A stretch of 64,000 bases of DNA from Verrucomicrobia bacterium UBA2281. GTDB lineage: Bacteria; Verrucomicrobiota; Kiritimatiellia; CAIQIC01; Lenti-01. Location of the stretch: assembly GCA_002347655.1 (NCBI GenBank), contig DDWR01000020.1, forward strand, positions 76,155-140,154. Reading direction: 5' to 3'. The notes beneath the pieces were generated by a model that saw only the letters and a program-made list of their open reading frames with translations, had not been told where the DNA came from and ran no database searches. Position numbers and translations under genes: made by a program. Positions 16,801 through 50,736 of the stretch are shown here, piece after piece (within the stretch, counting starts at the first letter, position 1; the number at the start of each line of letters is the position of its first letter).

Positions 16801-18641
16801 TGCACCCCATGGGCAACTGGATCGCCGCCATCTTGTTGGGAAGCGCTGCCGGCATTTTCCTGCTGAGCAAGTGCCTGTTTCTTGCGGCCTTTCGGCTTGG
16901 GTTTGCGATGGTGCTGGCCAATCTCGTCTATGAGGTGGCCGAACGCAAGGCGAGGCTCGGGCGCACGACGCTGGATGCCATCGCCTGGGTCGCGCTGGTC
17001 GCCGGGTTCGGCCTGTGGGGCGGGGGCTGGGCGGCGGCGGCCGCCGCCGTGTTGCTGGGCCTGGCTTGGATCGGCTATCTGTTCGTGGATGCGGAATGGA
17101 AGGCCGCCCGTCTGGCGCGGCAAAGCACGGAAACGGCTGGGCGCGTGCCGCTGCCCATTCCGCGCCTGGTCGTTTGCATTCGCGGGCCGGTGTTGGAGCG
17201 CGGCCGCGCGGAAGACGATCTCGGCGACTGGCCGGAACGGTGGGAGGATCGGTTTGAAATCGTCGTCCTGAATCCCAGTCCGATGCCGGCCCAATTGCCG
17301 GTCGAAGTCCACGTCGTTTCTTCCACCGTGCAACTGGAGGTGTCGGGAACGGTAGGGGGCGAATTGCCGCCGCCGGCATCCGGCGAAATCGTATCCATGA
17401 AGTTCGGCCTGCGCGCGGCCGGCAGCGGGCCGGGCGGCGAAGTCCGCGTGCACGTCCAGCACGGCGATTTCCATTATCGTCGGACCCTGCGCGTGCGCTC
17501 GATCGTGCCGCGCAGCCAGATCGCCGTGAAGCGGGCGGACGTCCGCCGCTGGAAGGGCGGTGCGCGCGGGGCGTTCGTCTGGCGCGGCGATCAGGATCTC
17601 TACGATCCGGCCACGTTCCAGTCGGCGGACGGCCTGCGCCACGTCTTGGGCCTGGCCCGGCGGTTCCGCATGCCCAACAGCCTGATGCTGTCCGCGCGCC
17701 TGAGCCTGGTGCCGGAAGAACACAAGGCGTTTTGCGAACGCTTTGGCTGGGACCGCAAAACGGGCGAAATCCAGGCCTTCATCCGGTTTCTGCGCGAGGA
17801 AGTGGACAAATCCCCGGAGCAGGAATGGCCGGTCGCGACGGTCAAGCCGTACGCCGCGGAGATTGGCAACCACTTCTATCTGCACTACGGCACGCATGCC
17901 GCGGCCGCCGAGGGCAACGGCTGGAAGAGCCATGCCGGCATCGGGGCCGGTCATTATTCCTGGTTCAGCCGCAATCCGATGGATTCCTTCCTCGAGCAGC
18001 GCGACAACGCCGTGAAAGGCAGCCAGGTTCTGAAGGATGCGCTCGGCGCGGCACCCGCCAGTTTCACGATCCCGAGCGACGTGTTCGACGGCGACACCGC
18101 CCGGGCCATGGAAGCGGCCGGCCTGGAAGTCGGGTCCGAAACCGATACGCCGAAGTGGGAAAAACTGCTGCATTTGGCCCCTCCGCACCATCCCGCCGGC
18201 TGCGAGCGGTTCGTGGAACTGCCGCGCATGCATCCGCGCGATCCCGAGAACGCCGGCCAGGTGGCGATGTTGAAATACTGGGTCGGCGCCGCGCGCCGCT
18301 CGGGACGGGCGCTGGTGTTTTTGGCCCACCACCATTTGATGCGCTACCGGGGCTGCGAAAGCGCGGCGTTGGTCGAAACCTTCCTGCACCACGTGCTGGC
18401 GAACCAGCAGGGCGACCTGTACGTCGGCACGCTGACGGCCGTGGGTCGCTACTGGCGCGACGTGCTCAGCCCGCGCACCCGTTGCGTCAAGGCGACGGCG
18501 ACGGGCAACCGCGTTTCCCTTGCGAACGCCGCTCCGCGCGCGTTCGCGGCCTTGCCGCTGGAAATCGATCTCGGCGGCGGCAAACGCCACCTGCGGCTGG
18601 TGGACGTCGGCGCCAAGGCAACTGTGGATCTAGACGTATAA
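16797..18641 (+). CDS. membrane-anchored deacetylase-like protein (two N-terminal TM helices, beta-rich middle domain, C-terminal NodB/glycoside-hydrolase-deacetylase-like domain); paralogue A
   Basis: ATGA overlap at 16797. 614 aa. His-rich motifs (..GNHFYLHYGTH.., ..LAHHHLMRYRG..). About 35-40% identity by eye to CDS 21549..23330 over the full length. Confidence 0.5.
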   Translation: MMHPMGNWIAAILLGSAAGIFLLSKCLFLAAFRLGFAMVLANLVYEVAERKARLGRTTLDAIAWVALVAGFGLWGGGWAAAAAAVLLGLAWIGYLFVDAEWKAARLARQSTETAGRVPLPIPRLVVCIRGPVLERGRAEDDLGDWPERWEDRFEIVVLNPSPMPAQLPVEVHVVSSTVQLEVSGTVGGELPPPASGEIVSMKFGLRAAGSGPGGEVRVHVQHGDFHYRRTLRVRSIVPRSQIAVKRADVRRWKGGARGAFVWRGDQDLYDPATFQSADGLRHVLGLARRFRMPNSLMLSARLSLVPEEHKAFCERFGWDRKTGEIQAFIRFLREEVDKSPEQEWPVATVKPYAAEIGNHFYLHYGTHAAAAEGNGWKSHAGIGAGHYSWFSRNPMDSFLEQRDNAVKGSQVLKDALGAAPASFTIPSDVFDGDTARAMEAAGLEVGSETDTPKWEKLLHLAPPHHPAGCERFVELPRMHPRDPENAGQVAMLKYWVGAARRSGRALVFLAHHHLMRYRGCESAALVETFLHHVLANQQGDLYVGTLTAVGRYWRDVLSPRTRCVKATATGNRVSLANAAPRAFAALPLEIDLGGGKRHLRLVDVGAKATVDLDV

Positions 18642-18678
18642 TGTCGAATGTCGAACTCCGAATATTGAATGTCGAAGG
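18640..18678. repeat. upstream arm of an inverted repeat: AATGTCGAA x2 plus a TGTCGAA partial, AT-rich
   Basis: taATGTCGAAtgtcgaactccgaatattgAATGTCGAAgg, read directly. Its reverse complement TTCGACATT recurs twice downstream of the enclosed gene (19073-19102). Confidence 0.7.
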
Positions 18679-18692
18679 CAGGACGACGTAGG

Positions 18693-19061
18693 ATGCCGGC
18701 GCAAAAATATGATTTAGAAGATCGGCTGGTGGATTACGCTTCTTTGGTCGTTGAACTGACGGAGGCGTTGCCCAGCACGCGCGCCGGCAATCATTTTGCC
18801 GGGCAATTGTTGCGGTCCGGCACGGCGGCGGCGCCGAATTACGGCGAGGCGCAGGCGGCGGAATCCAGGCGCGACTTTGTCCACAAACTGGGCATCTGCT
18901 TGAAAGAATTGCGCGAATCGCGGATTTGGTTGCGTATCGTTCAGCGGCGGACACTGCTCAAGGCCTCCGTCGTGGAACCCGTTTCGCGAGAAACCGAGGA
19001 GCTGATTCGAATCTTCAAGACCAGCATCGCCACCGCCAAACGCAACGAGGCCAAACATTGA
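18693..19061 (+). CDS. four-helix-bundle protein (TIGR02436 / 23S-rRNA-intervening-sequence-protein family)
   Basis: 122-aa protein (MPAQKYDLEDRLVDYASLVVELTEALPS..AGQLLRSGTAAAPNYGEAQAAESRRDFVHKLGICLKELRESRIWLRI..), matching the canonical family pattern. AGGA about 10 nt upstream of the start. Confidence 0.7.
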   Translation: MPAQKYDLEDRLVDYASLVVELTEALPSTRAGNHFAGQLLRSGTAAAPNYGEAQAAESRRDFVHKLGICLKELRESRIWLRIVQRRTLLKASVVEPVSRETEELIRIFKTSIATAKRNEAKH

Positions 19062-19069
19062 GGCCGGAT

Positions 19070-19102
19070 CCCTTCGACATTCGATGTTCATAATTCGACA
19101 TT
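19070..19102. repeat. downstream arm of the inverted repeat: TTCGACATT x2 plus CGATGTT
   Basis: cccTTCGACATTcgatgttcataaTTCGACATTaag, read directly. It ends 4 nt before the next gene's ATG (19107). Confidence 0.7.
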
Positions 19103-19106
19103 AAGT

Positions 19107-20297
19107 ATGAAAACCGAAAATCATCCTCCTGTTTTGCTGCTCGGCGCGGACGAAAACGAAAGCCTGCCGATCTTGGCGAATTTGCATCGGCATGGCGTGC
19201 CGATCGCGGCGGCCGCGCCCCGGCGGCTCAGCATGGGCCTCTTTTCGCGCTATCCGTCCCGCAAACTGATTTCGCCCGACCCCAACGCCGCGCCGGAGAA
19301 GTTCGTCGACTGGGTGGAGCAAACCGTGAAGGGCGGGGAATACCCCGTGACGATGGTGTGCGGCGAAACCGCGACTTGGCTGATGGCGCAGGCGCGCGAG
19401 CGGCTGGCGCCGCACACGCGGCTGCCGCTGGTGGACGTGTCCAAGTTCTATCTGTGCCGCGACAAGTCGAAGACGATGAAAGAGGCGGCGCGGCTGGGGA
19501 TTCCCACGCCGAAGACCTGGTATCCAGACGACGTGGGCATCGCGGCGGTGGCGGCGGAAATCCCGGCCTATCCCGTGGTGCTCAAGCCGTGCATCAGCAA
19601 CGGCGCGCGGGGCATCCGCTATCCGAAGGACGCGGAAGAGCTGAAAACCATGTATGCCGCGACGCGCGCGGAATACCAAGCGTGCATCGTGCAGGAATTC
19701 GTGCCGCATTCGGGCATGCAGTACAAAGCGGAGGTCATCCTCGACGCGTCCGGGAAGTCGGTCTGCGGCGGCGTCTACGACAAGCCGCGGTTCTATCCGC
19801 CCACCGGCGGCTCCAGCACGCTCAATTCGACGGTGGACCGGCCGGACATCCTCGACTATGCCACCCGGTTCCTGCAGGGCATCGGCTGGTACGGGATGGG
19901 GGATTGCGATTTCATCGAGGACCCGCGCGACAACGTGCCGAAGCTGATGGAAGTGAATCCGCGCTTCACGCGCAGCATCAAGATCCTGGTCGAGGCCGGA
20001 TTGGAATATCCGTATCTGCTCTATCGGCTGGCGCTGGGGTTGCCCATCGAGCCGCAGTTCGCCTACAAGAAGGGCCTGTACCTGCGCTATTTCCTGAGCG
20101 ATTGCGTGTGGTTCCTGCGTTCCAAGAACCGCTTCAAGGCCAAACCGAGCTTCTTCTGGTTCTTCGGGCGGAACCTGCGCGACGAGATTTTCTCGTGGGC
20201 GGATCCGCTGCCGACCGTCGCGTTCGTCGTCGTGTTCTTCTCGCGGTTGCTGAACGCGAAGTCCCGCCAGGCCATGCTGCGGACCAAGACCAAGTGA
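19107..20297 (+). CDS. ATP-grasp domain protein (second copy; carboxylate-amine ligase type)
   Basis: ..YPVVLKPCISNGARGIRY.., ..EVILDASGKSVCGGVYDKPRFYPPTGGSSTLNS.., ..LMEVNPRFTRSIKI.. (ATP-grasp signature regions). Confidence 0.65.
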   Translation: MKTENHPPVLLLGADENESLPILANLHRHGVPIAAAAPRRLSMGLFSRYPSRKLISPDPNAAPEKFVDWVEQTVKGGEYPVTMVCGETATWLMAQARERLAPHTRLPLVDVSKFYLCRDKSKTMKEAARLGIPTPKTWYPDDVGIAAVAAEIPAYPVVLKPCISNGARGIRYPKDAEELKTMYAATRAEYQACIVQEFVPHSGMQYKAEVILDASGKSVCGGVYDKPRFYPPTGGSSTLNSTVDRPDILDYATRFLQGIGWYGMGDCDFIEDPRDNVPKLMEVNPRFTRSIKILVEAGLEYPYLLYRLALGLPIEPQFAYKKGLYLRYFLSDCVWFLRSKNRFKAKPSFFWFFGRNLRDEIFSWADPLPTVAFVVVFFSRLLNAKSRQAMLRTKTK

Positions 20298-26038: not shown

Positions 26039-26100
26039 ATCGACAGCCGGATTGACGGCTGCCGGACAAGCGGGTAGCTTGTTGCCGGACAGATACGGAC

Positions 26101-26391
26101 ATGCAGACGCGCGAAAACATCTTGGCGGCATTGCGGGAGCTCAAACCCGCGCTGGCGATGCGCTACAAGCTGCGCTCCATGGCTTTGTTCGGCTCGTATG
26201 CCCGCGGCGACCAGACGCCGGACAGCGACGTGGACGTTCTGGTCGATTTTGATCCTGCCATCGGCCTCGATTTCGTCGATTTGGCGGAGGCCATCGAGCG
26301 TCGGCTGGGGGTCAAAACGGACGTGGTTCCGGCGGATGGAGTCAAACCGCGTTACCGAGCCGTCATCCAAAAAGATCTGGTACATGTCTGA
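26101..26391 (+). CDS. mntA: nucleotidyltransferase-fold antitoxin MntA (of the HepT/MntA pair)
   Basis: 96 aa with a GS-x9-DxD motif (..LFGSYARGDQTPDSDVDVLVDF..). It overlaps the downstream HepT-like gene by 8 nt. Confidence 0.7.
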   Translation: MQTRENILAALRELKPALAMRYKLRSMALFGSYARGDQTPDSDVDVLVDFDPAIGLDFVDLAEAIERRLGVKTDVVPADGVKPRYRAVIQKDLVHV

Positions 26392-26713
26392 GCGCTCGGC
26401 TGAAATTCTGTTGGACGATATCCGCGAGGCGCTCGCGAAAATCGCCACCTATGTGCAAGGTTTGGATGAGGCTGCCTTTGCTGGCAATGGCATGGTCGTG
26501 GATGCCGTCTTGCGCAACATCTCCGTGATTGGGGAGGCCGCATCCAAGTTGCCGGACGAATTCACTCGCGCCCATCCCGAGATCGAGTGGCGCAAGATCG
26601 TCGGAATGCGCAATCGCCTGATCCACGGCTATTTTGGCGTTAGCCTGCCGTTGGTTTGGCAAACCATCCACGGTCACTTGCCCGAATTTAGGGACAAGCT
26701 GGACAAGCTGTGA
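26384..26713 (+). CDS. hepT: HepT-like toxin (DUF86, RNase of a type II/VII toxin-antitoxin pair)
   Basis: R-x4-HxY motif (..GMRNRLIHGYFGV..), 109 aa, directly coupled to mntA. Confidence 0.75.
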   Translation: MSERSAEILLDDIREALAKIATYVQGLDEAAFAGNGMVVDAVLRNISVIGEAASKLPDEFTRAHPEIEWRKIVGMRNRLIHGYFGVSLPLVWQTIHGHLPEFRDKLDKL

Positions 26714-27108
26714 TCCGGTTGACTTCGGTTTCCCTTGTTGTTCGGCGCTGGATTTGCGCAATCCATCTGGCCCTGATCGCCGTTCTCTCGTTGGCGCCGG
26801 CGTGGTTGTTTCCACCGTCGCCGCCCGGGCTGCCGGGCATCGACAAGGCCGTGCACGTGGGGCTGTACGGGATTCTGGGCGCGTTGTTGCGATGGGCGGC
26901 CGGACCGTGGGCCGCGACGCGCGCGGCGCTGGCGTTGCCGGCAGCGGGGGCGTTGTATGGGCTTCTGTTGGAACTGCTGCAGCCTTGGCTCGGTGGAGCG
27001 GGGCGGGCATTCAGCTGGGCGGATGCGGCGGCAAATCTGGCCGGGATCGTCCTGTTCTGGGTGGTTGCCGGCCGATTTCTGGGGCGGGAAAATTCATCTT
27101 TTCGATGA
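26710..27108 (+). CDS. VanZ-family membrane protein
   Basis: GTG 26710 overlaps the hepT TGA. Four predicted TM segments (..WICAIHLALIAVLSLAP.., ..DKAVHVGLYGILGALL.., ..AGIVLFWVVAG..). Confidence 0.55.
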   Translation: MIRLTSVSLVVRRWICAIHLALIAVLSLAPAWLFPPSPPGLPGIDKAVHVGLYGILGALLRWAAGPWAATRAALALPAAGALYGLLLELLQPWLGGAGRAFSWADAAANLAGIVLFWVVAGRFLGRENSSFR

Positions 27109-30523: not shown

Positions 30524-30561
30524 CGAGGTCCGAGGTCGGAGGTCCGAGGTCGGAGGTCCGG
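30524..30561. repeat. tandem heptanucleotide array (SGAGGTC) x5 copies; upstream inverted partner of the array at 31001-31084
   Basis: cgaggtc cgaggtc ggaggtc cgaggtc ggaggtc cgg, read directly. It is the reverse complement of the GACCTCS units downstream of the enclosed gene. Confidence 0.8.
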
Positions 30562-30618
30562 AAGGCAGGGACAAGAGATGCGAGATCCGAAGCCCGCGGG
30601 CAATGAAAAGGAGCGCAA

Positions 30619-31002
30619 GTGAAAATATTTTCGGCGAAGGATTTGGATGCCTATCGGCTGGCGTATTCGCTGGCGATGGAAATTTTCCGGCTGAGCAAAA
30701 AGTGGCCGGCCGAGGAAAAATATTCGCTGACAGATCAAGTGCGCCGCAGTTCGCGTTCGGTGTGTGCCAACATGAGAGAGGCGTGGGCCAAACGAAGATA
30801 TGAAGCCCATTTCATGAGCAAACTGACGGATTGCGACGGCGAAAACAGCGAAACGGACACTTGGCTGGATTTCGCCCGCGATGGCGGATATTTGCCGTCC
30901 GCCGATCATAAACGCCTGACAGCCGACTGCAAACGGGTCGGGGCAATGCTGGGAGGCATGTTGAGAAACCCGGCCCCGTTTTTGAAGGGTGACCCTCCGT
31001 GA
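30619..31002 (+). CDS. four-helix-bundle protein (TIGR02436 / 23S-rRNA-IVS-protein family), second copy
   Basis: GTG start preceded by AAAAGGAG. MKIFSAKDLDAYRLAYSLAMEIFRLSKKWPAEEKYSLTDQVRRSSRSVCANMREAWAKRRYEAHFMSKL.. is a textbook match to the family consensus. Confidence 0.75.
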   Translation: MKIFSAKDLDAYRLAYSLAMEIFRLSKKWPAEEKYSLTDQVRRSSRSVCANMREAWAKRRYEAHFMSKLTDCDGENSETDTWLDFARDGGYLPSADHKRLTADCKRVGAMLGGMLRNPAPFLKGDPP

Positions 31003-31631
31003 CCTCGGACCTCCGACCTCGGACCTCGGACCTCCGACCTCGGACCTCGGACCTCCGACCTCGGACCTCGGACCTCGGACTTCGTTTCGCGCTCCGCGCG
31101 GACGTCGCCATCGAAGATTTCGGCGAGCGGGCGCTGGTGCTGCGATGCGACGCGCTGGAGCTGCGCGAAGTCAACGCCGGCGGCCGGAAGATCCTGGAAC
31201 GGGTTGACGGCAACCGGACGGTGAAGGATATTGCCGGCGATGCGGGAATGGCGGTCGACGTCGTCCGCGACGCGTTGCTGGAGATGGAACGCCAGGGGTT
31301 GGTCCGGCGCGTCGTGGAATTGAGAAAGGAAAGGTTCGGAAATATGAGCGAGGCCCAATATCTGGCCGACCCCGACGTGTCCTTCCGTCCGGAAGACGAC
31401 GACGGAGGCATTCTCTACAACGCGGAAACCGACGTGCTGGAAGTGATCAATCCGACGGCCGCCGAGATCTGGAAGTTCCTCGCGGCGCCGCGCACGCCGG
31501 CCGACGTGGTCGCGCATCTGCTCGGCGTCTGCGACGGCGCGTCCCGGGACCAGGTCGAGCGGGACGTGGAGGCGTTTCTGGAGTCCATGCGGAGCAAGGG
31601 CTTCGTCGGCGTGGTCGCGGAGCCGGCATGA
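30999..31631 (+). CDS. tandem PqqD-like (RRE) domain protein; N-terminal 28 aa encoded by the heptanucleotide repeat. May alternatively be expressed as a separate PqqD unit from the internal ATG at 31344.
   Basis: Single ORF with no in-frame stop. GTG 30999 overlaps the upstream TGA (GTGA). Two PqqD-like halves (..ALVLRCDALELREVNAGGRKILERVDGNRTVKDIAGDAGMAVDVVRDALLEMERQGLV.. and MSEAQYL..GGILYNAETDVLEVINPTAAEIWKFLAAPRTPADVVAHLL..RDVEAFLESMRSKGFV). AGGAAAGG lies 9 nt before the internal ATG 31344. Start choice uncertain. Confidence 0.5.
   Translation: MTSDLRPRTSDLRPRTSDLRPRTSDLGLRFALRADVAIEDFGERALVLRCDALELREVNAGGRKILERVDGNRTVKDIAGDAGMAVDVVRDALLEMERQGLVRRVVELRKERFGNMSEAQYLADPDVSFRPEDDDGGILYNAETDVLEVINPTAAEIWKFLAAPRTPADVVAHLLGVCDGASRDQVERDVEAFLESMRSKGFVGVVAEPA
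31001..31084. repeat. tandem heptanucleotide array (GACCTCS) x12 copies (84 nt), inverted relative to 30524-30561
   Basis: gacctcg gacctcc gacctcg gacctcg gacctcc ... gacttcg, read directly. It is in frame with the ORF 30999..31631 and encodes (TSDLRPR)x4. Confidence 0.85.
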
Positions 31632-32827
31632 CGGATCCGCGCGACTCCTGCGACGGACTGGCCGACCGGCCCGCGGCCGGGCCGGTGGTCGCCATGTCGC
31701 CGGACGTCCCGGCCTTGCGGACGTTCTATCTCTACCTGTCCGCCGGCTGCAACCTGCATTGCCGGCATTGCTGGATCACGCCGACGTTCGTGCATGGGAA
31801 ACCGGTCCCGGCCGAATGCCTGGATTTCGGCTTGTTGAGAAGCGCGGTGGCGGAAGCCAAGCCGCTGGGACTGGCGGCCGCCAAATTGACGGGCGGCGAG
31901 CCGACCCTGCATCCGGAATTCCGGCAGATCGTCGATTTCCTGACGGCGGAGGGCCTGGAACTGTCCATGGAAACCAACGCCACGCTGATCGACCGCGAGT
32001 TGGCGGTGCATCTGGTTTCCAAGACGAACCTGAGGCGGGTCGCCGTGAGTTTGGACAGTTCCGTTCCGGAAGCGCACGACCGTTTCCGGGGGGTAAAGGG
32101 GGCCTTTGCCGCCGCGGTGGCGGGCATCGGGCATTTCGTGGCGGCCGGAATGCGCCCGCAGCTCATCATGTCGGTTTATCGCGGCAATCTGGACCAGATC
32201 GAAGGCTTGATCGAACTGGCGATCCGGCTGGGCGCGGGCGCGGTGAAGTTCAATCCGGTGACGCAGTCGGGCCGCGGCGCGGACCTGCACCGGCAAGGGC
32301 AGGGGCTGGATTTCGACGAGTGGCTGGCGCTGATCCATCGCATCAAAGGGCCGCTTCAAGACCGCTATCCCGCGATGCATCTGGGGGCGATGGTGCCGCC
32401 GGCGATGTCGAGCGCAAAAGAACTCCTGCGCTACGGCGCGGAGGGCGCGGGCTGCCACGTGCGCCACATTCTCGGGATCCTCGGCACGGGCGAAATGGCC
32501 TTGTGCGGCATCGGGCGGAATATTCCCGAGCTTTGCTTCGGCCAATTGGGGAAAGACTCCCTGCGGGAAGTCTGGCTGAACCATCCGACGCTGGTGCAGA
32601 TGCGCAAGGACCTGGAAGGACCTTATCCGGGTATCTGCGGCGATTGCCTGCATGCGGGCCGTTGCATGACCCATTGCCTGGCCCAGAATTTCGAGGCCAA
32701 CGGCAAGCTGGTCTCGCCGTCGCCGCTGTGCGCGGAGGCGGTGCGGCGCGGGGTGTTTCCGCAGAGCCGAAGAAAAACGTGGACAGGGATCAGGGAACAG
32801 GGGACAGGGGACAGCAGAAGACAATGA
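31628..32827 (+). CDS. radical SAM/SPASM-domain protein (second peptide-maturase-type enzyme)
   Basis: ATGA overlap at 31628. CxxxCxxC (..LSAGCNLHCRHCWI..). SPASM-type Cys cluster (..CHVRHIL..LCGIGRN..CGDCLHAGRCMTHC..). 399 aa. Confidence 0.8.
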   Translation: MTDPRDSCDGLADRPAAGPVVAMSPDVPALRTFYLYLSAGCNLHCRHCWITPTFVHGKPVPAECLDFGLLRSAVAEAKPLGLAAAKLTGGEPTLHPEFRQIVDFLTAEGLELSMETNATLIDRELAVHLVSKTNLRRVAVSLDSSVPEAHDRFRGVKGAFAAAVAGIGHFVAAGMRPQLIMSVYRGNLDQIEGLIELAIRLGAGAVKFNPVTQSGRGADLHRQGQGLDFDEWLALIHRIKGPLQDRYPAMHLGAMVPPAMSSAKELLRYGAEGAGCHVRHILGILGTGEMALCGIGRNIPELCFGQLGKDSLREVWLNHPTLVQMRKDLEGPYPGICGDCLHAGRCMTHCLAQNFEANGKLVSPSPLCAEAVRRGVFPQSRRKTWTGIREQGTGDSRRQ

Positions 32828-32857
32828 CACTATTTCCGACAATCTCGGGGCTTTAAA

Positions 32858-33460
32858 GTGTCACCGGTTTCCTGTCACCTGTCTCCTGGGCTCGGTCTTT
32901 TCCTCCACGCTTCCGCAGTGGCGTTGCCGGAGGGGGCGGTGCTGTTTCTCGGCCATTCCACGGCCGGAAAAAGCACGCTGGCGCGGAAAATGGGCGAACA
33001 GGTGCCGGTGCTGGCCGACGATTCCGTGTATGCCGCGCGGGATGCGGAGGGGCTCTGGCGGGTGGTCGACGGGGGCTTTCGCTTTGACCAGGGCTGGGGC
33101 ATGGCCGAATGGATGACCGATGTCCGGCGGCACTTCCAGGAGGGGCGCGGGGTCCCTGTGCGGAAGTGCTTTCGCATCCATCAAGCGCCCGCGGTGCGGA
33201 TCGAGCCGATGCCGCCGGTGCAACTGGGGAAGCACCTGATGGACGCCGCGATGGAAATCGACGTGCAACGGAAATTCGGCAGAATAGCCGCGGATCGACC
33301 GTCGGAACGCAATGTCTGGCAGGAAGTTGTGCAACAAAGGCGGCTTTGGTTCCGGCTGACCGCGGAATTGGCCCGCAGCTGCCCGGGAGGGCACCTTTGG
33401 TTCGCCAAAGAGACGCCGGCAAGTGAAGTGTTGGCGGCGGTCGCCCAGACGCAAGGTTGA
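32858..33460 (+). CDS. HprK-related P-loop kinase (HPr kinase C-terminal-domain-like)
   Basis: Walker A GHSTAGKST (..AVLFLGHSTAGKSTLARKMGE..), about 200 aa, which is the size of the HprK C-domain. GTG start 31 nt after the rSAM stop. Confidence 0.55.
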   Translation: MSPVSCHLSPGLGLFLHASAVALPEGAVLFLGHSTAGKSTLARKMGEQVPVLADDSVYAARDAEGLWRVVDGGFRFDQGWGMAEWMTDVRRHFQEGRGVPVRKCFRIHQAPAVRIEPMPPVQLGKHLMDAAMEIDVQRKFGRIAADRPSERNVWQEVVQQRRLWFRLTAELARSCPGGHLWFAKETPASEVLAAVAQTQG

Positions 33461-33816
33461 GGCGGTTTTTCCAAAAAATCGCAACAAATGACCTGTTCGG
33501 GGCTGAAAACGGCTCCATTCGGCTCTGAAAAGCTCTCCAACGGCGGAAATTTCATCGAAAACGGATCAATTTTCGTTCTGCGCGCCCAAAATTAGCGGAA
33601 AGAGCCCTCTTGCGCGCCTCTGTTAAGCTGAAATTGCAGAAAACTCCTTAAAAATCGCCCTAAAACGGCCCAAAGGGCCCGAAGTCTTAATCAAAACCAC
33701 ACACGAATATAATCTATATTTAATTGTGCATGATTTGCGCACATTCCTGTGGGAGAATATGATGTCGTTATCAATTGAAGAGAGTTTCGCCGTCTGCAAC
33801 AGGTTGCGCGGAAAGA
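33461..33816 (+). promoter_or_regulatory. unusually AT-rich 350-bp intergenic region; putative promoter/regulatory region of the giant gene
   Basis: Abrupt drop in GC (ttccaaaaaatcgcaacaaatg.., ..aatataatctatatttaattgtgcatgatttgcgcaca..). Contains direct repeats gctgaaaacggctcc / ctctgaaaagctctcc and an imperfect palindrome tgtgcatgatttgcgcaca just upstream of the start. Confidence 0.3.
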
Positions 33817-36800
33817 ATGAGAAAACGGTCCACATTTCGGATTGGGCGGTGTTCGTGGTGTGCGATGGCCGCGGCACTGGTTCTGGCTGGACCCGTGTGG
33901 GGTGGGAACCCGGACGGGGATCTGCGCGTCGAGATCATCACGGCCTACAATCTGGTGGTGGATTCCAACGCGGAGTCGCCCTCGACCTACGCGCCGAAAT
34001 CGGCCTACATCGGGGCGAAGTTCTGCAACGACGGCGCCAACGCGCTGACGAACGTCTGGGCGTACATCGGCGATCTGGACGCCGGGACGCCGGGGACCTA
34101 TCCGAGCCGGGCGCACCCGCCGCTGGTCGGTCCGCTGCCGGGCGGGGAATTCGCGCTGGTCCACGAGGGCGGCACGATGGGGGCGAACGACGCGACGCGC
34201 TACGTCGGCACCATCGAGCCGGGCGAATGCGTCACGGTCTATTGGCTCGTCAGCTATCCGCAGCTGGATGAAAACGGCGACGCGGTCTGGGGGCCCAGCA
34301 TCAAGCCCGACGACGACCTGTGGCTGGAGTACGACGTCTGGGCCACGGCCCGGGACGGCGGCGCCTATCTGCAGGCCGACGACTCGCGCACGCTGACCTG
34401 CCGCAACGAAATTTCCGCCATGGCCAACAAGATCTGGCCCAACGGCGCCAACAAGGTGCCCCAGGAATACAAGGATTTGCTGCAGCAGTACGCGCCGCTC
34501 TGGACGAACACGTCGGCCGTCGCCGAACCCGGCGCGATCCTGCGCACGGAAGGCATCTGGTACGATCTGGGCAACGTTGGCGACGGGTTCGACAACGACG
34601 GCGACCTGGTGCCGGACCGCAACGCGTGGCTCCAGCCCGTCGGCGATCCGGATCTGTTTGATCCGTCCTGCTTCCGGCTGGTGCGCACCTACGCGATGGT
34701 GATCGTGAAGCTCAACGACGGGACCGAGCAGGTCATCGTCGTGGAGGACCAGCTCTACTTCACCCAGATCCCCGCGAACAACCGCGGGGCGGTGGGCTAC
34801 GTGATGTACGAGTTCATTGCCATCGGGTCGGGCTGCGTCAGCACCCTGACGCCGTACCAGGAAGTGGCCTCGGGCTTCGACAACGAGAAGTTCAACGGCG
34901 ACTACGGCGCGCCGGGGCAGACCCTGACCGGCGGCACGTCGCTGCTGGCCATCGCGAAAACGGCGGACCCGACCCTGACGCGGCCGGGAAGCAACGTCGC
35001 CTATACGGTCACCTATACGAATTCGGGCCCGGATCCCTCCGGCCGGCCGGACATCGGCTTGCCGGTGGTGATCCAGGATGCCATCCCCACGGGCACGGTC
35101 TACGTGGCGGGCAGCGCGACGGCCGCCAACGTCCTGCCACAAGGCGTAGGCAGCTACACGGTCTATTTCTCGACGAACCACGGCCTGACCTGGTCCCTGA
35201 CGGAGCCGGCGATCGCCACCAACGTGACGGACGTGCAGTGGTGGCTGAGCGATCCGTTGCCGCCCGGCGGAACCGGCACCGTGAAGTTCTCCGTCACGGT
35301 CAAGAATCCCTGGCCTTACCCGAGCCCGGTCGTGCCGAACACCTCGGGACTGAGCTTCGGCAACACGACGCCGTTCCTGTGGGCGCACGCGCAGACGCTG
35401 CTGCTGGGCAACAACGCGCTGGGCGACACGGTCTGGCGCGACGACGGCGAAGGCGGCGGTCTGCTCGGCAACCAGCTTCAGGACGGCGGTGAAACCGGCA
35501 TCACCGGCGTGACGGTGCGCCTGTATTACGATCTGGACGGCGACGGCGGAGCCGACTATCTGTTCGCGACCACGAACACCGGCGCGAGCGGTTACTACAC
35601 CTTCACCAACCTGCCCGACGGCCATTTCGTCGTGGTCGTGGACGCCGCGGATCCGGACGTGCCGTTCGGCTACACGCCGACCACGCCGACGGCCTTTCCC
35701 ATTGCGCTCGATCCCGCGCGCACCAACGTCAATCCCGTCGTGGACTGGACCTCCGACTTCGGCTTCGCGCCGGCCCTGACGCTGGTGAAGACGTGGACCA
35801 GCACCAACGCCGTCCGCGAAGGCCAGTTGATCGGCTACAATCTGACGGTCTCCAACAGCCTGCCGGGCGACGGCACCGGTTCAGGTTCGCCGGCGACTTA
35901 TTTCGCCTGGGCGTCCACCGGTGGCGCCAACTATAAAAACACCGAATGGGTGGACTACTGGAACGCCTACACTCCCCCGGGGCCGGACGGCGTGTACTGT
36001 TCCAACCAGTTCGCGGGCCCGACGACGGTGCTCTCGCTCACCAACTTTACCGTCGGCGCGCAATTGGGGGAGGCGACCACCGTCTCGCTCGTGATTCCGA
36101 TCTTGATGGTTCCGCCCATCGGCGGCGACGACACGGTGACCATCGACGTCCGAACCAAGTCGCCCTCCGAGTCGCGCTTCACCGAGACGTATCTGGCGAC
36201 CAACCTCGTCAACGGCGTCTGGACGATTCCCATGACGGGCATTTACGATTGGGCCTGGGCGGACTTCGACACGAACGCCGTGGTGACGCTGACGGCCAAG
36301 AAGAACGCCGGCGGCACGGCCGGCGGCTGGATCCTGGTGGACGCGGTCGGGTTCAAGATCGAAAGCGACCAGACCGTCGGCGTGGCCGGCGGCACCACGA
36401 CGCTGGATCCGGTGCCCCTCGTGGACCGCTACGATCCGGCCCGCCTGCAGTTCGTGAGCGCCCAGCCGCCGGAGTCGCGCGTGGTCTCCAACGGCACCGG
36501 CACGATCTACTGGGACAACGTGGGGCCGATCTATCCCGGCGGCACCTCGACGGTGGCGGTGACGTTCAAGCTGCTCGAGCCGCCCAACAACACCAACGCC
36601 GTCGTCACGAATACCACCTGGGTCACCAACGCCTACTTCCAGGGCGGCGCGCAAGCCAACAACGCCACGAGCAGCGTGGTCGTCACGCAGTTTCCGGCCG
36701 CGACCGTCGGCGACTACGTCTGGCGCGACCTGGACGGCGACGGCATCCAGGACGCGGGCGAACCGGGCGTGCCCAACGTGGCCGTGTCCATCACGCCGCC

Positions 36801-39800
36801 GGCCGGCATCGACCTGGGGAACGGCCTTGGCGCGGCCATCACCAACTGGACGGACGAAAACGGCTACTACCTGTTCGAGTCGATCCCGACGACCGGGATC
36901 TACACGGTGCGGGTGGTGACGGCGACCCTGCCGGGCGGGACGGGCGTCAATACCTTCGACGAGGACGGCGTGCTGAACAGCCAGACCGCCGTCTACCTGG
37001 ACATCTACGCCAACGGCACGAACAACCTGCATCTGACGACCGATTTCGGCTACACCCTGCCCAGCACGATCGAAGGCACCATCTGGCACGATTATGATCG
37101 GGGGCAGGAAGCCTATCGCGAAGCCGGCGAGGACTGGATGACCAACGTGACGGTCTATCTGTGCGCCAGCCCGTCGCCCTGCGGCCCGGACGCGTCCATC
37201 GCCACCAACGTCACGACCACCAACGGCTATTTCCAGTTCACCGGCAACTTCATCGGCACCTACACCGTCTACGTTGCGACCAATTCCGGCATGCTCAGCA
37301 ACGGCTCGTGGAAGATCTCGTTCGACACGGACGGCACCAACACGCCGAATGTTGCCGCGGTGACGGTTCCGCTCGGCGGGACGGGGCGGGCGGACTTCAG
37401 CTACTTCCGCACCGGACCCTACCGGATCGGCGACACGGTGTTCTACGACTGGAACAGCGACGGCGTGCAGAACGTCGAATCCGAGGGCGGCATCTCCAAC
37501 GTCACGGTCTATCTCTACGAAGACGCCAACGGCAACGGCGTGGTGGACGCGGCGACCGACGCCTTCGTCGCCTCGACGGTCACCGCCACCAACGGCTACT
37601 ACCTGTTCACCAACCTGTTCGCGACGAACACCTACCTGGTGATCGTCGATCGGCAGGACCCCGACCTGCCGGCGAACTACATCGTGACCGCGGACCCCGA
37701 CGCCGTGAAGGACGCGCGCAGCGTCGTGACGATCGTCAACGCCGACGATTTCGACCAGGATTTCGGGTTCTGGCCCTACGGAAACGGCGCGATCGGCGAC
37801 ACGGTGTGGAAGGACGTGAACGCCGACGGGATCCAGCTGGGCTATCAGGAGCCGGGCATCGCCGGCGTGCGGGTCACGCTCTACTACGAAGCCAACGGAA
37901 CCTGGTGGCCGCTGCGGAGCATGGACACCGACGCCAACGGCATGTATCTCTTCGACTCCCTGCCGGACGGAAACTACCGGGTGGCGGTGGACGATGCGGA
38001 CGCCGACCTGCCGGTCGATGCCTTGGGCAACGCCTATTATCCGAGCACCCCCGTCTTCCACGACGCGACGATCAGCGGCGGCAACGTCTACCTGGACGCC
38101 GATTTCGGCTTCGCGCCCTACGGCGCGATCGGCGACACGGTCTTCTGGGACCTCAACCGCAACGGCGACCAGGACTTCAACGACCCCGGCGTGGCCGGCG
38201 TGGACGTTTACCTGTATGCCGACGCCAACGGCAACGGCATCTACGATGCGGGCGAAACGCTGGTGGCCACCGAAACCACCGACGCGACCGGGTTCTACGT
38301 GTTCTCCGGCCTGCTGCCGGACCGCTACGTCGTCGTGGTCGAAACGGCCAGCGGCCCGCTGGCCGGCACGGACCCGACCGCCGATCCGCAGTCGGACGGC
38401 CTGGCCTGCGACGATCCGCTCAACGTCGTGCCCTGCGACGACCAGTGCGGCTGGACGCTCGCGCCCGCGCAGATCTTCATGGGCGCGGACTTCGGCTATG
38501 CGCCGCGGGGCGTCATCGGCGACACGCTCTGGATCGATACCAACGGCAACGGCGTGCGCGACGAAAACGAACTCGGTATTCCGTACGTCGACGTGATCCT
38601 GTATTCCAACGGGGTGGCGATCGCCACAAACGCGACGGATGCCGACGGCTACTATGGCTTCAGCGGCCTGGTGGACTTCGCCAACTACGGCGTGCGGGTA
38701 GCGACCAACGACGTCGATTTCCCGGCCGGCCTGACGAACACCTGGACGGCGGACGGCACCTTCGACAACTACGCGACCAACATCGTGATGTCCGGCGGCG
38801 CCGTGACCTCGATCGGCGGCTATCCTTGCACGGACTGCGACCTGAACGTCGATTTCGGCTACCGCTACGCCGGCAACAACAGCCTGAGCGGCACGATCGG
38901 CCTCGACGCGCCGCCCTACGACGGCCTGATGAACGGCCTGAATCCGTCCGGTCCCGGCGCGGGCGAATCGCCCTATGCCGGCGTGCCGGTGACGCTCTAT
39001 CTCTGGAACGACGACGGCGACGGCATCCTCGAGGCCGGCGAAACCGTGCAGATCGGCACGAAGACCACCGATGCCAACGGGGATTACGCTTTCACGGGAT
39101 TGCCGAACGGCGACGGCAACGACAAGTACGTCGTGGCCAGCCCCGCGCCGGAAAGCTATCTGACGCTCACCACCACCAACGGCTCCATCGCCGGCGTGGC
39201 GGTGTTTTCGACGACCAATCTCCAGGGGTACGCCGTTTCCGCCCGGCTGGCGGTCGACGTCGCGGCGAACGTCACGAACATGGACTTTGCCTACGCCTCC
39301 CAGAAGGCCTACGACTACGGGGACCTGCCGGAGAGCTACAAGACGTTGCTGTCCGATGGCGCTCGGCACGTCGTGCCGCCGACGCCGAATCTCTATCTGG
39401 GCGCCGGCGTGGATACCGAACAGAACGGCGCACCTTCCACGGGCGCCGATGGCGACGATCTGGCCGGGACGGACGACGAGGACGGCGTGGTCCAGATCGT
39501 TTCGTCCACGTGGCGGACCGGCACGGCCGGCGGTTCCGTCGAAGTGACGGTGGGCGCGGGCAGCGGCTGGTTGCTGGGCTATATCGATTTCAACGGCGAC
39601 GGCGATTTCGTGGACGCCGGCGAAATGGTCTGCAACTTGGCGGTTTCGAACGCCGGCGGCAACGGGGTAGGAGTCTACACCAACGCGTTCACCGTGCCCG
39701 CCGGCACGTTCTCCGCGACCAGTTCCACGCCGCTCTACGCGCGCTTCCGGATTGTTCCGTCCCGGCCGCTGTTCCCCGAACTGGCCTATGCCGGCACGGC

Positions 39801-42800
39801 CGAAAACGGCGAAGTGGAGGATTATCTCTGGCATCTGGCCGGCCTGGGCGACTACGTCTGGTACGACGTGGACGGCGACGGCGTGCAGGACGCCGGCGAG
39901 CCGCCGATCGTCGGCGTGCGCGTGTTTGCCGACCTCAACGACGACGGCGTCTGGCAGACCACCGAACCTTCGGCGACAACCGATTCCAACGGGCTGTACG
40001 GCATCGGCGGACTGGTGCCGGGAACCTATTCCGTGCGGGTGGACACGAGCACGCTGCCGGCGGGCGTCACGCCGACCTACGACCTCGACGGCATCGGCAC
40101 GCCCCACCAAGCTTCGGCCGAAATCACGGCGCTCGACCAGTTCGTTGCCACCGTCGATTTCGGCTATGCTCCGCCGGTGAACATCGGCGATCGGGTGTGG
40201 TTCGACGCCAACCGCGACGGCATCCAGAACGCCAGCGAAACCAACGGGCTTTACGAAATCCCCGTCGCGTTGCTGGACACCAACGGGAACGTCGTGGCCG
40301 AAACGGCCACCGATTCTGAGGGCAACTACCTGTTCGCGAACATGCCGACCGGCACCTATCTGGTCCGGTTCGACCTGTCCGTCTTCACCACGAACGAAAT
40401 GCTCAGCCCGTCCAAGGTCGGCAGCGACGACGCCATCGACAACGATTGGGTTTCCGGCAACGCCAGCGACTACGCCTGGACGGCGCCGTTCTCCGTTTCG
40501 GGGGGCGAGGACTACCTGGACGTGGATCTCGGCGTGGCCACTCGTTCGCCGACGCGCGCCGAACTGGCCGAGGTCTGGGGCGAATGGGTGGAAAATGAAG
40601 GACGCGTGGTTTGGCGCACCGATGCGGAATACAGCACGGCCGGATTCTTCGTCTATCGCGTCGATCCGGAAACCGGCGCGGAATCGCGGTTGAACGAGCG
40701 ATTGGCGCTTTCCGCGTTCAACGAAGGCGGCGCGACCTACGCGCTGGCCGATCCCGCGGCGCGCGCCGGCGAGGAACGGACCTATCGCCTGGAAGAAGTC
40801 GAATTGTCCGGCGAACGCCGCGACCTGGGCACGCGCGAAATTCGTTTTGCAGAACCGGCTGAACCCACCGCGGTTTCCCGCTCGGCGCTGGCGGCGCCAC
40901 CCGCGAAAAAATCCGTTCGCCCCAAGGGCCTGGCGGGTCCGTCCGCGGTGCTGAAGGTTCACGTGGGCCGGGAGGGCCTCTATGGCTTGGGTTGGTCGGC
41001 CATCGCGGACGGCATGGGACTCGCGCCGGCGGACGTGCAGGCGCTGGCCGAAGCGGGTTCGCTGAAGATCGCGCGCCAAGGCGAACCCGTGCCGACGCTC
41101 GTCGATGCGGCGCGCGAACGGCTGCTCTTCCATGCGCGGCCACCGGTGCGCACCTGGTACGCGCACGACGACGTCTATCTGGTATCGGTCGGTGACGGGC
41201 TGCCGATGGTGCGGCGCGATCCAGGCGCGGTGGCCGGAACGACGGCCTTTCCGACGACGCTCCGCTTCGAAGAAAACAGATTCCTGTTCAGCATGAACCG
41301 CATGCCCGCCGATTTCTACTTCTGGATTCCGGTCATGAGCGGCTACGGGGAGCTGTCGGTGACCAACGTGCCGCTGGATCTGGGCGGCTATGCGGGCGGC
41401 GACGTGGCGCTGACCGTGCGCCTGATGGGCTGGTCCAGCTCGACCAATCATCCCGACCATCTGGCGCGGTTCGCCTTCAACGGCGTCGAACTGGGCGAGA
41501 TGTCCTTCGACGGGCAGGAGGTGGCCGAGGCCCATTTGGCGGTGCCGGCGTCCATCGTGTCGAACGGCGTCAATACCTTTGCGATCGAAGGGGTGCTGCA
41601 AGCCGGCCGCAGCGACAGCTTCTTCGTGGTGGATTGGGTGGATGCCTCGTTTGTCCGGACGCTGGCGCCCGAAACGATTCCCGCCGCGTTCGGCGCGAAC
41701 GGAGCCGCCGCGGTTTCCGCGCAGGCCTTCGCCGAACCGATCGCCGTGGCCGTGGACGAGATGGGCAACCCGACCTGGATTGCCGCCGAAAACGGGGAAT
41801 TGCCGACCAAAGCGTGGGCCGTCGCCTCGCCGACCGAACGGTATGCGGTCGTCGCGGCCGACGCGCTGCCGATGCTGGCGCCCGAGCCGGCCGCGGCGGA
41901 CGCCTGGTTCCTCTCGGCCGAAAACCAAATCGATTACCTGGTGATTGCCTCCCGCGACTTGGCCGCGGCGGCGCAGGAACTCGTGGATTATCGCGCGGGG
42001 CAGGGGCTGCGCGCCGGCTTGGCGACGTTCGAAGACGCCTGCGATTTGCTGACGGGCGGCGTGCGGACGCCGGAGGCCGTTCCGGCTCTGCTGAAGCGTG
42101 CCGCGGCGACCTGGGCGGTCGCGCCGCGGATGGTCGTGCTGGCCGGCAGCGGGCACTACGACTACCTGGGCATCAACTATGCCGAACCCAACCATCTGCC
42201 GCCGCTGCTGGTCCAGATGCCGGCCGGCGTGTGCGCTTCGGACGGCTTGCTGGCCGATACGGGCGGCGACGAACTGCCGGATCTCGCGATCGGGCGGTTG
42301 CCCGCGCTGACCGCCGCGGAACTGACCGCCATGATTGCGAAGATCAAGGCCTACGAAGCGGGCTTCGGCTCCGCATGGCAGAACCAACTCGTGCTGGCGG
42401 CGGACAACGCCGACGCGGCGGGTCCGTTCCTGGCGGCGAACCAGCGGTTGGCGGATTTGGTGGAAACGCCCTATGCGGTGGCCGAACGGATCGAACTGGA
42501 TTCGATGGCATTCGGCTTGGCGCGCACGAATCTCTTGCGCTGGTTCAACGTCGGCGCGGGCTTCATCAACTACGTCGGCCATGGCGACATCAAGAATCTC
42601 GCGTCGGAAAAGTGGCTGAAGGATACCGACGTGGCGGCGATGGTGAACACCTCCCGGCCGCCGGTGGTGGCCACGCTGACCTGCCTGGCGGCGCGGTACG
42701 AAGTGCCCGCCGTGCATAGCCTCGGCGAGCGCCTGCTGCGGCAAGCCGGCGGCGGCGCCGTCGCGGTGCTGGGTCCCTCCGGCCTTTCGCAGAACGCCCC

Positions 42801-50663: not shown

Positions 50664-50736
50664 TGGCGGGAACCGGGGTCGAACCGGTGACCTAAGGCTT
50701 ATGAGTCCTCCGCTCTGCCAACTGAGCTATCCCGCC
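50664..50736 (-). tRNA. tRNA-Met (anticodon CAU; elongator type, though tRNA-Ile2/lysidine cannot be excluded)
   Basis: The reverse complement reads GGCGGGATAGCTCAGTTGGCAGAGCGGAGGACTCATAAGCCTTTAGGTCACCGGTTCGACCCCGGTTCCCGCCA. Canonical D-loop (AGCTCAGTTGG), T-loop (GGTTCGA), 7-bp acceptor stem, CCA end. Confidence 0.8.

Follow-up and report, generated by a model that had tools for sequence, protein, structure and literature searches.

A four-helix-bundle gene between inverted heptamer arrays: a probably mobile cassette of the intervening-sequence type at operon junctions of a Verrucomicrobia bacterium

In a polysaccharide operon of Verrucomicrobia bacterium UBA2281 (contig DDWR01000020.1), a gene of the four-helix-bundle (4HB) family PF05635/TIGR02436 lies between two arms, inverted relative to each other, that consist of tandem heptamers. 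The whole unit, cassette 1, is 465 bp long and occupies 18639-19103 of the 64,000-nucleotide stretch analysed here, which is referred to as the window. To our knowledge the function of this protein family is unknown and, since the 1990s, it has been known only as the open reading frame (ORF) of the intervening sequences (IVS) of 23S rRNA. The results given below lead us to regard cassette 1, with fair confidence, as an IVS-type and probably mobile cassette that is co-transcribed with its operon and whose arms pair, looping out the gene. The rRNA IVS were already known; the new points are the presence of such an element in mRNA operons, the definition of its anatomy and its many geneless descendants.

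Anatomy of cassette 1 and of its relatives

The left side of cassette 1 reads gacgtaTAATGTC GAATGTC GAACTCC GAATATT GAATGTC GAAGGcaggacgacgtagg and then the ATG of the 4HB gene (4HB-1); the right side reads the TGA of that gene, ggccggatc, the right-arm heptamers, agt and the ATG of the next gene (Table 1). The first heptamer of the left arm contains the TAA stop codon (18639-18641) of the upstream 614-aa gene. On the other side the end of the right arm is at 19102/19103, and 3 nt separate 19103 from the ATG at 19107, that of the ATP-grasp gene. An earlier note, made from the window alone, had placed the unit at 18640-19102; this location is right except that the left arm starts at 18639 and takes in the upstream TAA. 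The same note had described copies of a 9-mer, AATGTCGAA, on both sides of the gene. Exactly five copies of it are found in the 64 kb window, all of them within 18640-19102, three on the + strand (18640, 18647 and 18668) and two on the - strand (19073 and 19094). The mean for shuffled sequence was 0.34 and none of 100 shuffles reached five. With one mismatch allowed there was no enrichment in the window (8 found, 9.7 expected), hence only the exact count is informative. While the inverted repeats are as described, the 9-mer is not their unit. Tandem Repeats Finder gives a period of 7 with 5.3 copies at 18640-18676, and the 9-mer comprises a single heptamer together with two bases of the following one. 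Between the arms there is an inverted repeat of 32 nt with 84% complementarity (18647-18678 against 19071-19102). Locally AT-rich flanks had also been claimed and were found, with a GC content of 0.50-0.54 against 0.66-0.73 in the surroundings.

The assignment of the 122-aa protein to TIGR02436 was upheld (E=3.4e-21, 75.5 bits, cut-off 24) and it also matches PF05635 (E=1.4e-13, 51.4 bits, cut-off 33.8). Its closest solved structure is PDB 2RLD (E=3.8e-14); the PDB relatives of the window 4HB proteins are 2RLD and 2GSC, each with five chains. PADLOC matched neither window 4HB protein to any defence family. Of the neighbours named in the note, the downstream ATP-grasp gene was recovered by Pfam but the 'deacetylase' upstream could not be verified, there being no Pfam or NCBIfam family for it. 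The flanking genes are protein-coding, so cassette 1 does not lie in a 23S rRNA gene, and at the Rfam gathering score the window contains a single tRNA (50664-50736, - strand) and no rRNA. A scan for promoters and terminators found none within cassette 1, and the one promoter-like match extends over the right arm into the beginning of the gene that follows. Since the 4HB-1 protein and its context are present on 12 contigs from several JGI and Logan samples, an assembly artefact is excluded; all six of these places that were inspected have the same neighbouring genes.

Homologous cassettes carry the same kind of flanks. Relatives 53-63% identical to 4HB-1 were taken from 80 metagenome loci, 69 of which had both flanks, and these together with the two gene-bearing cassettes of the window made up the 71 analysed. 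The inverted repeat between the flanks scored above every shuffle in 60 of the 71, with median scores of 44 for flanks of one locus, 24 for flanks of different loci and 15 for shuffles. A lag of 7 was the best period of self-similarity in 61 upstream and 60 downstream arms. Inverted flanks of period 7 are thus conserved with the gene, a point on which the note had made its idea of a module depend. The consensus left arm is T GAATATC GAATATC GAACAAG GAATNTC GAATGNC GAAG(G), with a complementary right arm, and AA at heptamer positions 2-3 is almost invariant across loci. The arms of cassette 1 are an ordinary member of this AT-type family; other loci follow the same plan with GAGCGTT, GATTGTC or GAACCTT units. 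Co-variation of the arms was measured on 23 anchored cassettes. Pairing was found in 83.4% of cells compared to 75.6% when partners were shuffled among loci (0 of 500 shuffles as high), pairs changed on both sides numbered 26 against 14.6 expected, and controls slid out of register were 29-47% paired. Pairing of the arms is therefore maintained, the mismatches giving no indication of the strand or the molecule in which it occurs. At two loci (L049, 2734-3545, and L058) a complete heptamer hairpin, (CAACGCT)n-loop-(GAGCGTT)n, stands on each side of the 4HB gene with more arrays upstream, an arrangement of nested or serial elements.

Both the protein and the arms show signs of constraint. Among orthologs dN/dS is 0.08-0.20 for 4HB-1 and 0.15-0.40 for the host gene. 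Between cassette 1 and its counterpart at locus L087 synonymous changes are saturated (dS 1.7 for the 4HB gene and 1.25 for the host gene, with a range of 1.2-1.7 across the 4HB and host comparisons). The arms of the same pair nevertheless share about 75% of their positions in register (30 of 40 by our own count, every GAA included). Given that these positions were kept despite synonymous saturation, the arm skeleton is under constraint. The 4HB proteins of this pair are 77% identical and the host proteins 50% identical. This incongruence was considered as evidence of transfer and rejected, as the dS of the 4HB gene is as saturated as that of the host gene and the lower dN/dS of the former explains the gap.

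The arms also occur without the gene. A 24-nt arm pattern, AATRTCSAATRTCSAACAAGGAAT, was used to scan 596 Gb of genome sequence, where by our own estimate at most about one match would be expected by chance. Of the 80 4HB loci it picks up 24, and it picks up none of the chance loci. A looser 15-base pattern had given single, apparently chance matches on viral contigs and was dropped; none of these fits the 24-nt pattern, which was used for the scan. At least 120 genome stretches contain the 24-nt pattern, and some metagenome-assembled genomes (MAGs) have several copies each. Among the matches listed are Verrucomicrobiota, Kiritimatiellia, Lentisphaerae, Planctomycetota, Bacteroidota, Desulfobacterota, Armatimonadota, Nitrospirota, Calditrichota, Marinimicrobia, Pseudomonadota and others. 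A profile search within the fetched stretches placed a 4HB gene near the pattern in only 4 of the 120 listed, so that among the matches listed geneless derivatives far outnumber gene-bearing copies. An inverted partner lies within 300 nt in 55 of 103 arm loci, with a median loop of 37 nt, and the remainder are solo arms; solo left arms are located between genes in many genomes. Arm-to-arm distance in the first set of 4HB loci is bimodal, either ~410-480 nt or 34-48 nt. Intermediate forms are seen at L261, where the loop encodes the 4HB N-terminus (FDLEDRLI...) fused to C-terminal remnants, and at a locus described below (L341, site 2), where the 4HB remnant is a 3' deletion. Judged from these sequences, the geneless hairpins are internal-deletion derivatives of the full-length element, resembling the miniature inverted-repeat type of transposable element (MITE). 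When the neighbouring ORFs of the 120 arm loci were clustered (within 2.5 kb), only generic or housekeeping families and the 4HB gene recurred; the only element-specific gene near the arms is the 4HB gene. At one further locus, in a Saprospiraceae MAG (L258, 4500-4750), a single left arm faces four tandem 33-nt right-arm units (ccttggacattccttgttggatattggatattc), the arm itself being amplified in tandem.

Placement at coupled stop/start junctions

The junction occupied by cassette 1, site 1, can be compared with its orthologs. The filled state is seen in L093 (4HB protein 91% identical), L090-92 (80%) and L087-89 (77%). It is empty in L094 (gtgTGAacGTG) and L095 (gtgTGAacATG), in which the host protein is 74 and 70% identical and the ATP-grasp start follows 2 nt after the upstream TGA, and empty again in the Kiritimatiellia MAG L096, in which the two genes overlap as GTGA. 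The presence/absence variation that the note had proposed looking for is thus observed, and it is patchy: on a host-protein tree both the filled and the empty state occur in both major clades. Read from the sequences, this distribution calls for two gains at the one junction or else for three to four losses, each of them precise. At the homologous junction of a gammaproteobacterium, Thiocapsa rosea (GCA_003634315.1; L097, 4840-5160), which follows a 612-aa gene, a 320-nt spacer is filled by a different repeat with at least four copies of gcggcttcagccgccaag hairpins; here another repeat family occupies the junction.

The note had pointed to a second cassette at 30.5-31.1 kb and suggested a recurrent module, possibly mobile or RNA-processing. 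Three modules are present in the window, the third being a geneless hairpin (module 3). The second (cassette 2, 30524-31084) has the layout of cassette 1 but not its arm sequence, the heptamers being quite different (GAGGTCC type). All three left arms have five heptamers followed by GAAG(G), and predicted RNA folds of all three modules pair the arms, closing a long-range stem with z = -2.95 for cassette 1, -6.56 for cassette 2 and -4.74 for module 3. The left arm of module 3 is GGACAGG GATCAGG GAACAGG GGACAGG GGACAGC AGAAG, followed by a 37-nt loop and a complementary right array. The protein of cassette 2, 4HB-2, scores 102.1 bits against PF05635 and 96 bits against TIGR02436 (cut-offs 33.8 and 24), and a profile search found no 4HB gene in the window beyond 4HB-1 and 4HB-2. 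As BLASTP detected no similarity between these two proteins, the cassettes are members of distant subfamilies and not recent copies of each other.

The junctions occupied by cassette 2 (site 2) and module 3 (site 3) belong to a SynChlorMet (Scm) radical-SAM cluster. Neither is occupied in L338 (ScmF 90% identical), L339 or L340. In L338 the empty junctions are gccGTGAacg at site 2, where the sequence is gccGTGAacgcggatctcggacttcgc, and gccTGATGgac at site 3. In L341, on the other hand, both are filled and the arm types are the reverse of those in the window. Site 2 has GGAGACA/GGGGACA arms of more than 10 units around a 36-aa N-terminal 4HB remnant while site 3 has a geneless hairpin with GAGGTCC-type arms. 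The simplest reading is that two subfamilies colonised the same junctions independently. With intact coupled junctions in relatives at each of the three sites, comparison of the sequences indicates that all three window modules are insertions at translationally coupled junctions.

The metagenome loci agree with this, and with the note's suggestion that junctions inside operons are targeted. A co-oriented neighbour is found upstream in 29 of 40 loci and downstream in 29 of 41, and the left arm begins within 6 nt of the upstream stop in 17 of the 29 co-oriented cases. The consensus arm end, TGAATATC, supplies a TGA by itself. Many of the loci (L007, L009, L012, L016, L030, L031, L035, L037, L039 and others) have their cassettes at one shared junction between two beta-ketoacyl-synthase-like genes, ...YTYGGQTAAVVLK* / cassette / MAERVVITGMGIV..., and this junction is a hot spot or else a second insertion site of long standing.

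A possible origin of the heptamers in the target was also considered. The empty site 2 of L338 contains ggatCTCGGACTTCG (2930-2960; compare window 31060-31100), which agrees at 7 of 8 positions with the array unit CCTCGGA/GACCTCG and codes for the conserved host motif DLGLR. Derivation of heptamers from the target site was rejected as a general rule since another organism has other arm types at the same junctions. The match may reflect microhomology of the element end with its target.

In the Scm cluster the host reading frames pass through the inserts. The stop codon of 4HB-2 overlaps a GTG (ccGTGAcc, 30999), which is the sole possible start of the ScmD-like ORF. This ORF runs through the right array as (TSDLRPR)x3 before reaching its conserved N-terminus, DLGLRFALR. 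The extension is absent from the ScmD-like proteins of relatives, hence repeat DNA is translated into a host protein. At module 3, ScmF reads across the left arm to a TGA within ATGA and ScmC starts at TAAaGTG and reads across the right arm. The loop holds a mini-ORF of 10 codons (MTLFPTISGL, 32824-32856) chained to its neighbours by these ATGA and TAAaGTG overlaps, and this mini-ORF may be the fused remains of a 4HB gene. Given that the frames are stitched through in this way and that cassette 1 has no promoter or terminator of its own, the inserts behave like segments of the operon transcript and links in its chain of translational coupling.

Table 1. Positions in the window of the three modules and their neighbouring genes.
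Feature	Position	Strand	Description
Upstream host gene, 614 aa	16797..18641	+	From the ORF list; no Pfam or NCBIfam family matched
Left arm, cassette 1	18639..18678	+	TAATGTC GAATGTC GAACTCC GAATATT GAATGTC GAAGG; five tandem heptamers and GAAGG
4HB gene 1, 122 aa	18693..19061	+	PF05635 / TIGR02436; purifying selection
Right arm, cassette 1	19071..19103	+	CCTTC GACATTC GATGTTC ATAATTC GACATTA; inverted complement of the left arm
ATP-grasp host gene downstream, 396 aa	19107..20297	+	Pfam PF02786, PF02655
Left arm, cassette 2	30524..30565	+	C GAGGTCC GAGGTCG GAGGTCC GAGGTCG GAGGTCC GGAAGG
4HB gene 2, 127 aa	30619..31002	+	PF05635 E=2.4e-29
Right arm, cassette 2	30994..31084	+	~12 heptamers, GACCTCG / GACCTCC
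ScmD-like (PqqD-family) ORF	30999..31631	+	Opens at the GTG overlapping the TGA of 4HB gene 2
Module 3, geneless hairpin	32781..32889	+	Between ScmF and ScmC; right arm 32858-32889

Two other features of the window were recorded. A nucleotidyltransferase/HepT-like pair (PF01909/PF18765 and PF01934) at ~26100-26715 (L001, 17409-18021), a typical toxin-antitoxin pair, is another small insert of the same polysaccharide operon. Downstream of the Scm cluster, a 3553-codon ORF (33775-44436) contains a 216-nt tandem repeat of 2.1-2.4 copies with 79-83% matches (43186-43712).

Explanations considered

The following course of events would account for these observations. The cassette would have inserted exactly in the 2-nt spacer between the upstream stop and the downstream start, the left arm, (GAANNNN)5-GAAGG, then furnishing the upstream stop codon. 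Having no promoter or terminator of its own, it would be transcribed within the operon mRNA. There the arms would pair as a stem of ~32-40 bp, loop out the 4HB frame and rejoin the host stop and start, and RNase III would cut the stem as it does in the rRNA IVS. Insertion would be tolerated at coupled junctions because the stem brings the host stop and start back together. The parts of this scheme are not equally firm. Cassette 1 is very probably an insertion of a dispersed family. Co-transcription of the cassette, with pairing of its arms in the transcript, seems likely. The chances that RNase III cuts the stem, a step taken over by analogy from the rRNA IVS, are about even, and it is plausible, though somewhat less likely than not, that the stem would keep the flanking cistrons functionally coupled. 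Binding of the five-heptamer array by a pentameric 4HB protein is speculative and is put forward as our leading guess, prompted by three observations: the units recur in fives, GAA is invariant at a spacing of 7 nt, and the variable positions show little constraint on pairing.

Several points weigh against this scheme. Mobility, though probable, is deduced from the distribution of the sequences and from that alone, and no transposase, integrase or reverse transcriptase recurs near the arms or cassette 1. No target-site duplication could be defined at site 1 when filled and empty orthologs were compared. The ends of cassette 1 can be read as TA/ATGTCGAA...TTCGACAT/TA, but TA is palindromic and this could equally be an extension of the repeat; no clean duplication emerges from L090 and L087, and TGAac(A/G)TG is the sequence of the empty sites. 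As the cassette has been stable past saturated dS, its patchiness at site 1 could be due to several precise losses instead of two gains. The co-variation of the arms was possibly inherited from the founders of element subfamilies. Asymmetry between G.U and A.C mismatches was tried as a test of selection on the sense RNA and none was seen: the arms contain 117 G.T and 113 A.C mismatches, 313 others and 2426 Watson-Crick pairs. Given this lack of a G.U excess, a DNA hairpin or descent from perfect terminal repeats would fit equally well. Lastly, AT-type arms compared in register have an identity of 0.62 when both come from the same locus and of 0.555 when they come from different loci. Conservation is therefore mostly of the motif itself, suggesting a sequence-specific reader and not pairing alone.

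This last point leads to the best of the alternatives, in which the cassette is a domesticated regulatory module, kept for the host at operon junctions, that is not, or no longer, mobile. A putative pentameric 4HB protein would read one GAA-N4 heptamer per subunit, binding its own arm and the geneless and solo arms in trans and so controlling stem formation, translational coupling or mRNA stability. The model for such a reader is TRAP, a ring protein that wraps spaced triplets. Five heptamers with GAAGG recur in three unrelated arm subfamilies of the window, AA at positions 2-3 is nearly invariant while the arms of one locus match only moderately, and arm mismatches have no wobble asymmetry. 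Purifying selection acts on the protein, the arm skeleton has outlasted the saturation of synonymous sites, and solo left arms are intergenic in many genomes. There are five chains in the solved homologs, and a pentameric toroid is cited for the Xanthomonas protein. However, the number five is not fixed, as there are 12 units in the right array of cassette 2 and more than 10 at site 2 of L341, and most listed arm loci have no 4HB gene in the fetched stretch. Coxiella probably does not produce the protein (PMC4990558). The occurrence of identical 24-mers in many phyla and patchiness among close relatives favour spread over an old host regulon. Taken as a replacement for the mobile cassette this alternative is unlikely, though by no means negligible; it is compatible with the mobile cassette as an addition to it.

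A selfish repeat acting purely at the DNA level is somewhat less probable still. This would be a MITE or palindrome with a passenger ORF and no RNA role, its arms being terminal inverted repeats (TIRs) for a transposase encoded elsewhere or forming hairpins in single-stranded DNA, and the location at junctions would merely be where insertions survive. An excess of geneless over gene-bearing copies, several copies per MAG, a distribution across phyla and presence/absence polymorphism at the window sites are what such a repeat would give, and the lack of a sense-strand G.U excess is in keeping with it. It is harder to reconcile with the strong bias to co-orientation and to a start at the upstream stop, with frames chained across the inserts (GTGA between 4HB-2 and the ScmD-like gene, ATGA...TAAaGTG at module 3) and with purifying selection on what would be a mere passenger. 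Neither a recurrent transposase near the 120 listed loci or the window cassettes nor a target duplication was found, and the homologous rRNA IVS is processed as RNA (PMC4990558).

A remnant or accessory gene of a diversity-generating retroelement (DGR), the 4HB protein being Avd, is very improbable: 4HB-2 does have weak matches to PF22296 bAvd (35.9 bits), DivGenRetAVD (NF033474, 27.9 bits) and the PHROG 'Avd protein of DGR', but the first two are below their cut-offs of 40 and 80 bits, nothing in 4HB-1 matches Avd, no reverse transcriptase is present in the gene tables for the surroundings of cassette 1 and for the Scm cluster, no template/variable repeat pair was seen, and flanks made of inverted heptamer arrays are foreign to DGRs.

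Returning to the mobile IVS-type cassette, a wider and distinctly tentative proposal can be made. The 4HB 'IVS proteins' may mark a hitherto unrecognised cross-phylum class of mobile hairpins with ordered heptamer arms, which would home to coupled stop/start junctions and leave large numbers of geneless MITE-like hairpins behind, the 23S rRNA IVS being the special case that was noticed first. The pentameric 4HB ring would be the element's own factor, binding (GAANNNN)5 with one heptamer per subunit and controlling pairing, processing or propagation. If this is correct, then inverted five-heptamer arrays, usually starting at a stop codon, are a general anatomy that can be searched for in any genome, and the rRNA IVS is one landing site of a broader element. 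Such an element would seed hairpins in operons, remodel the termini of host proteins (ScmD-like, ScmF and ScmC) and perhaps punctuate polycistronic mRNAs with RNase III sites. A concrete biochemical prediction would be that the pentamer binds (GAANNNN)5, the protein being also the closest relative of the DGR accessory protein Avd. Start and stop codons beside these arrays would also be easily mis-called in annotation. The finding is of interest because a large family of unknown function, with at least 7968 PF05635/TIGR02436 relatives in one search, becomes a testable system.

Comparison with known systems

A literature search for 4HB or S23p proteins together with heptamers or inverted repeats outside rRNA led to one paper only, that on the Coxiella IVS. 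No description was found of 4HB cassettes outside rRNA, of the arm architecture, of the junction preference or of geneless derivatives; subscription journals were largely uncovered by the search and an earlier notice is possible.

Integron gene cassettes are likewise a promoterless ORF with an imperfect inverted repeat, inserted co-oriented in a transcribed array. They differ in having attC on one side only, in needing IntI and attI and in showing no heptamer periodicity, and no integrase is present in the gene tables seen around the cassettes. Avd forms a pentamer and binds both nucleic acid and its reverse transcriptase. The window proteins share with Avd (PF22296, NF033474) a homologous small four-helix-bundle fold but, besides the low scores and the missing retroelement parts noted above, their genomic anatomy is different.

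Heptamers also occur in the short tandemly repeated repetitive (STRR) sequences of heterocystous cyanobacteria. The TAACTGA arrays of Beggiatoaceae, Cyanobacteria and Bacteroidetes are direct repeats, with only one inverted set reported (PMC4679880). Both kinds of array resemble the arms described here in being intergenic, of period 7, near start codons, patchy across phyla and suspected of a post-transcriptional role. The TAACTGA arrays, however, are direct repeats of one unit whereas the arms are inverted pairs of ordered, non-identical units. The terms 'four helix', 'S23' and 'IVS' do not occur in the text of PMC4679880, which thus gives no 4HB link for the TAACTGA arrays.

Closer parallels are the Correia elements or Neisseria miniature insertion sequences (NEMIS) of Neisseria and the enterobacterial repetitive intergenic consensus (ERIC) elements of enterobacteria. 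These MITEs are short, have TIRs and many copies and lack an internal transposase (PMC10969869), and they too are placed beside or between genes and transcribed into mRNAs. Within mRNAs the terminal repeats of the Correia element are cut by RNase III, while the ERIC hairpin modulates RNase E (PMC10969869). The family described here has the TIRs without an internal transposase, the dispersed copies and the presence/absence polymorphism at orthologous sites that define a MITE; an autonomous transposase-coding relative was not found in the 2.5 kb around the 120 listed arm loci. It differs from Correia and ERIC in its heptamer arms, in a full-length form that codes for a 4HB protein instead of a transposase, in its spread across phyla and in its stop/start placement. 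In addition, the TA target duplication typical of Correia is not demonstrable in the window cassettes.

The closest parallel is the 23S rRNA IVS, as the earlier note had supposed in calling the module IVS-like. The IVS has been reported in Leptospira, Xanthomonas and Brucella (cited in PMC4990558) and is best described in Coxiella burnetii, where it is 428 nt long with a 28-bp terminal stem in which RNase III cuts were mapped (PMC4990558). Tandem heptamers, GACAGAT x3 and GACAGAA, precede the S23p ORF next to this stem, and in that paper heptamers are noted for Coxiella only. Its authors call the element selfish and cite the Xanthomonas homolog as a homopentameric toroid (PMC4990558). The cassettes and the IVS share a PF05635 protein, an ORF in the loop of a stem made by terminal inverted repeats, and an ORF in the sense direction within a host transcript with no promoter of its own. 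For both a selfish or mobile nature has been proposed. With Coxiella they also share tandem heptamers by the start of the ORF (compare GACAGAT with the GGACAGG of module 3). They differ in that the host site in the window is a junction in a protein-coding operon and not helix 25 or 45, and in that the arms are long, ordered five-heptamer arrays on both sides. RNase III cleavage was mapped in Coxiella while the stem described here is known from sequence and a predicted fold. Finally, 4HB-1 is under purifying selection whereas the Coxiella ORF is decaying and probably untranslated (PMC4990558).

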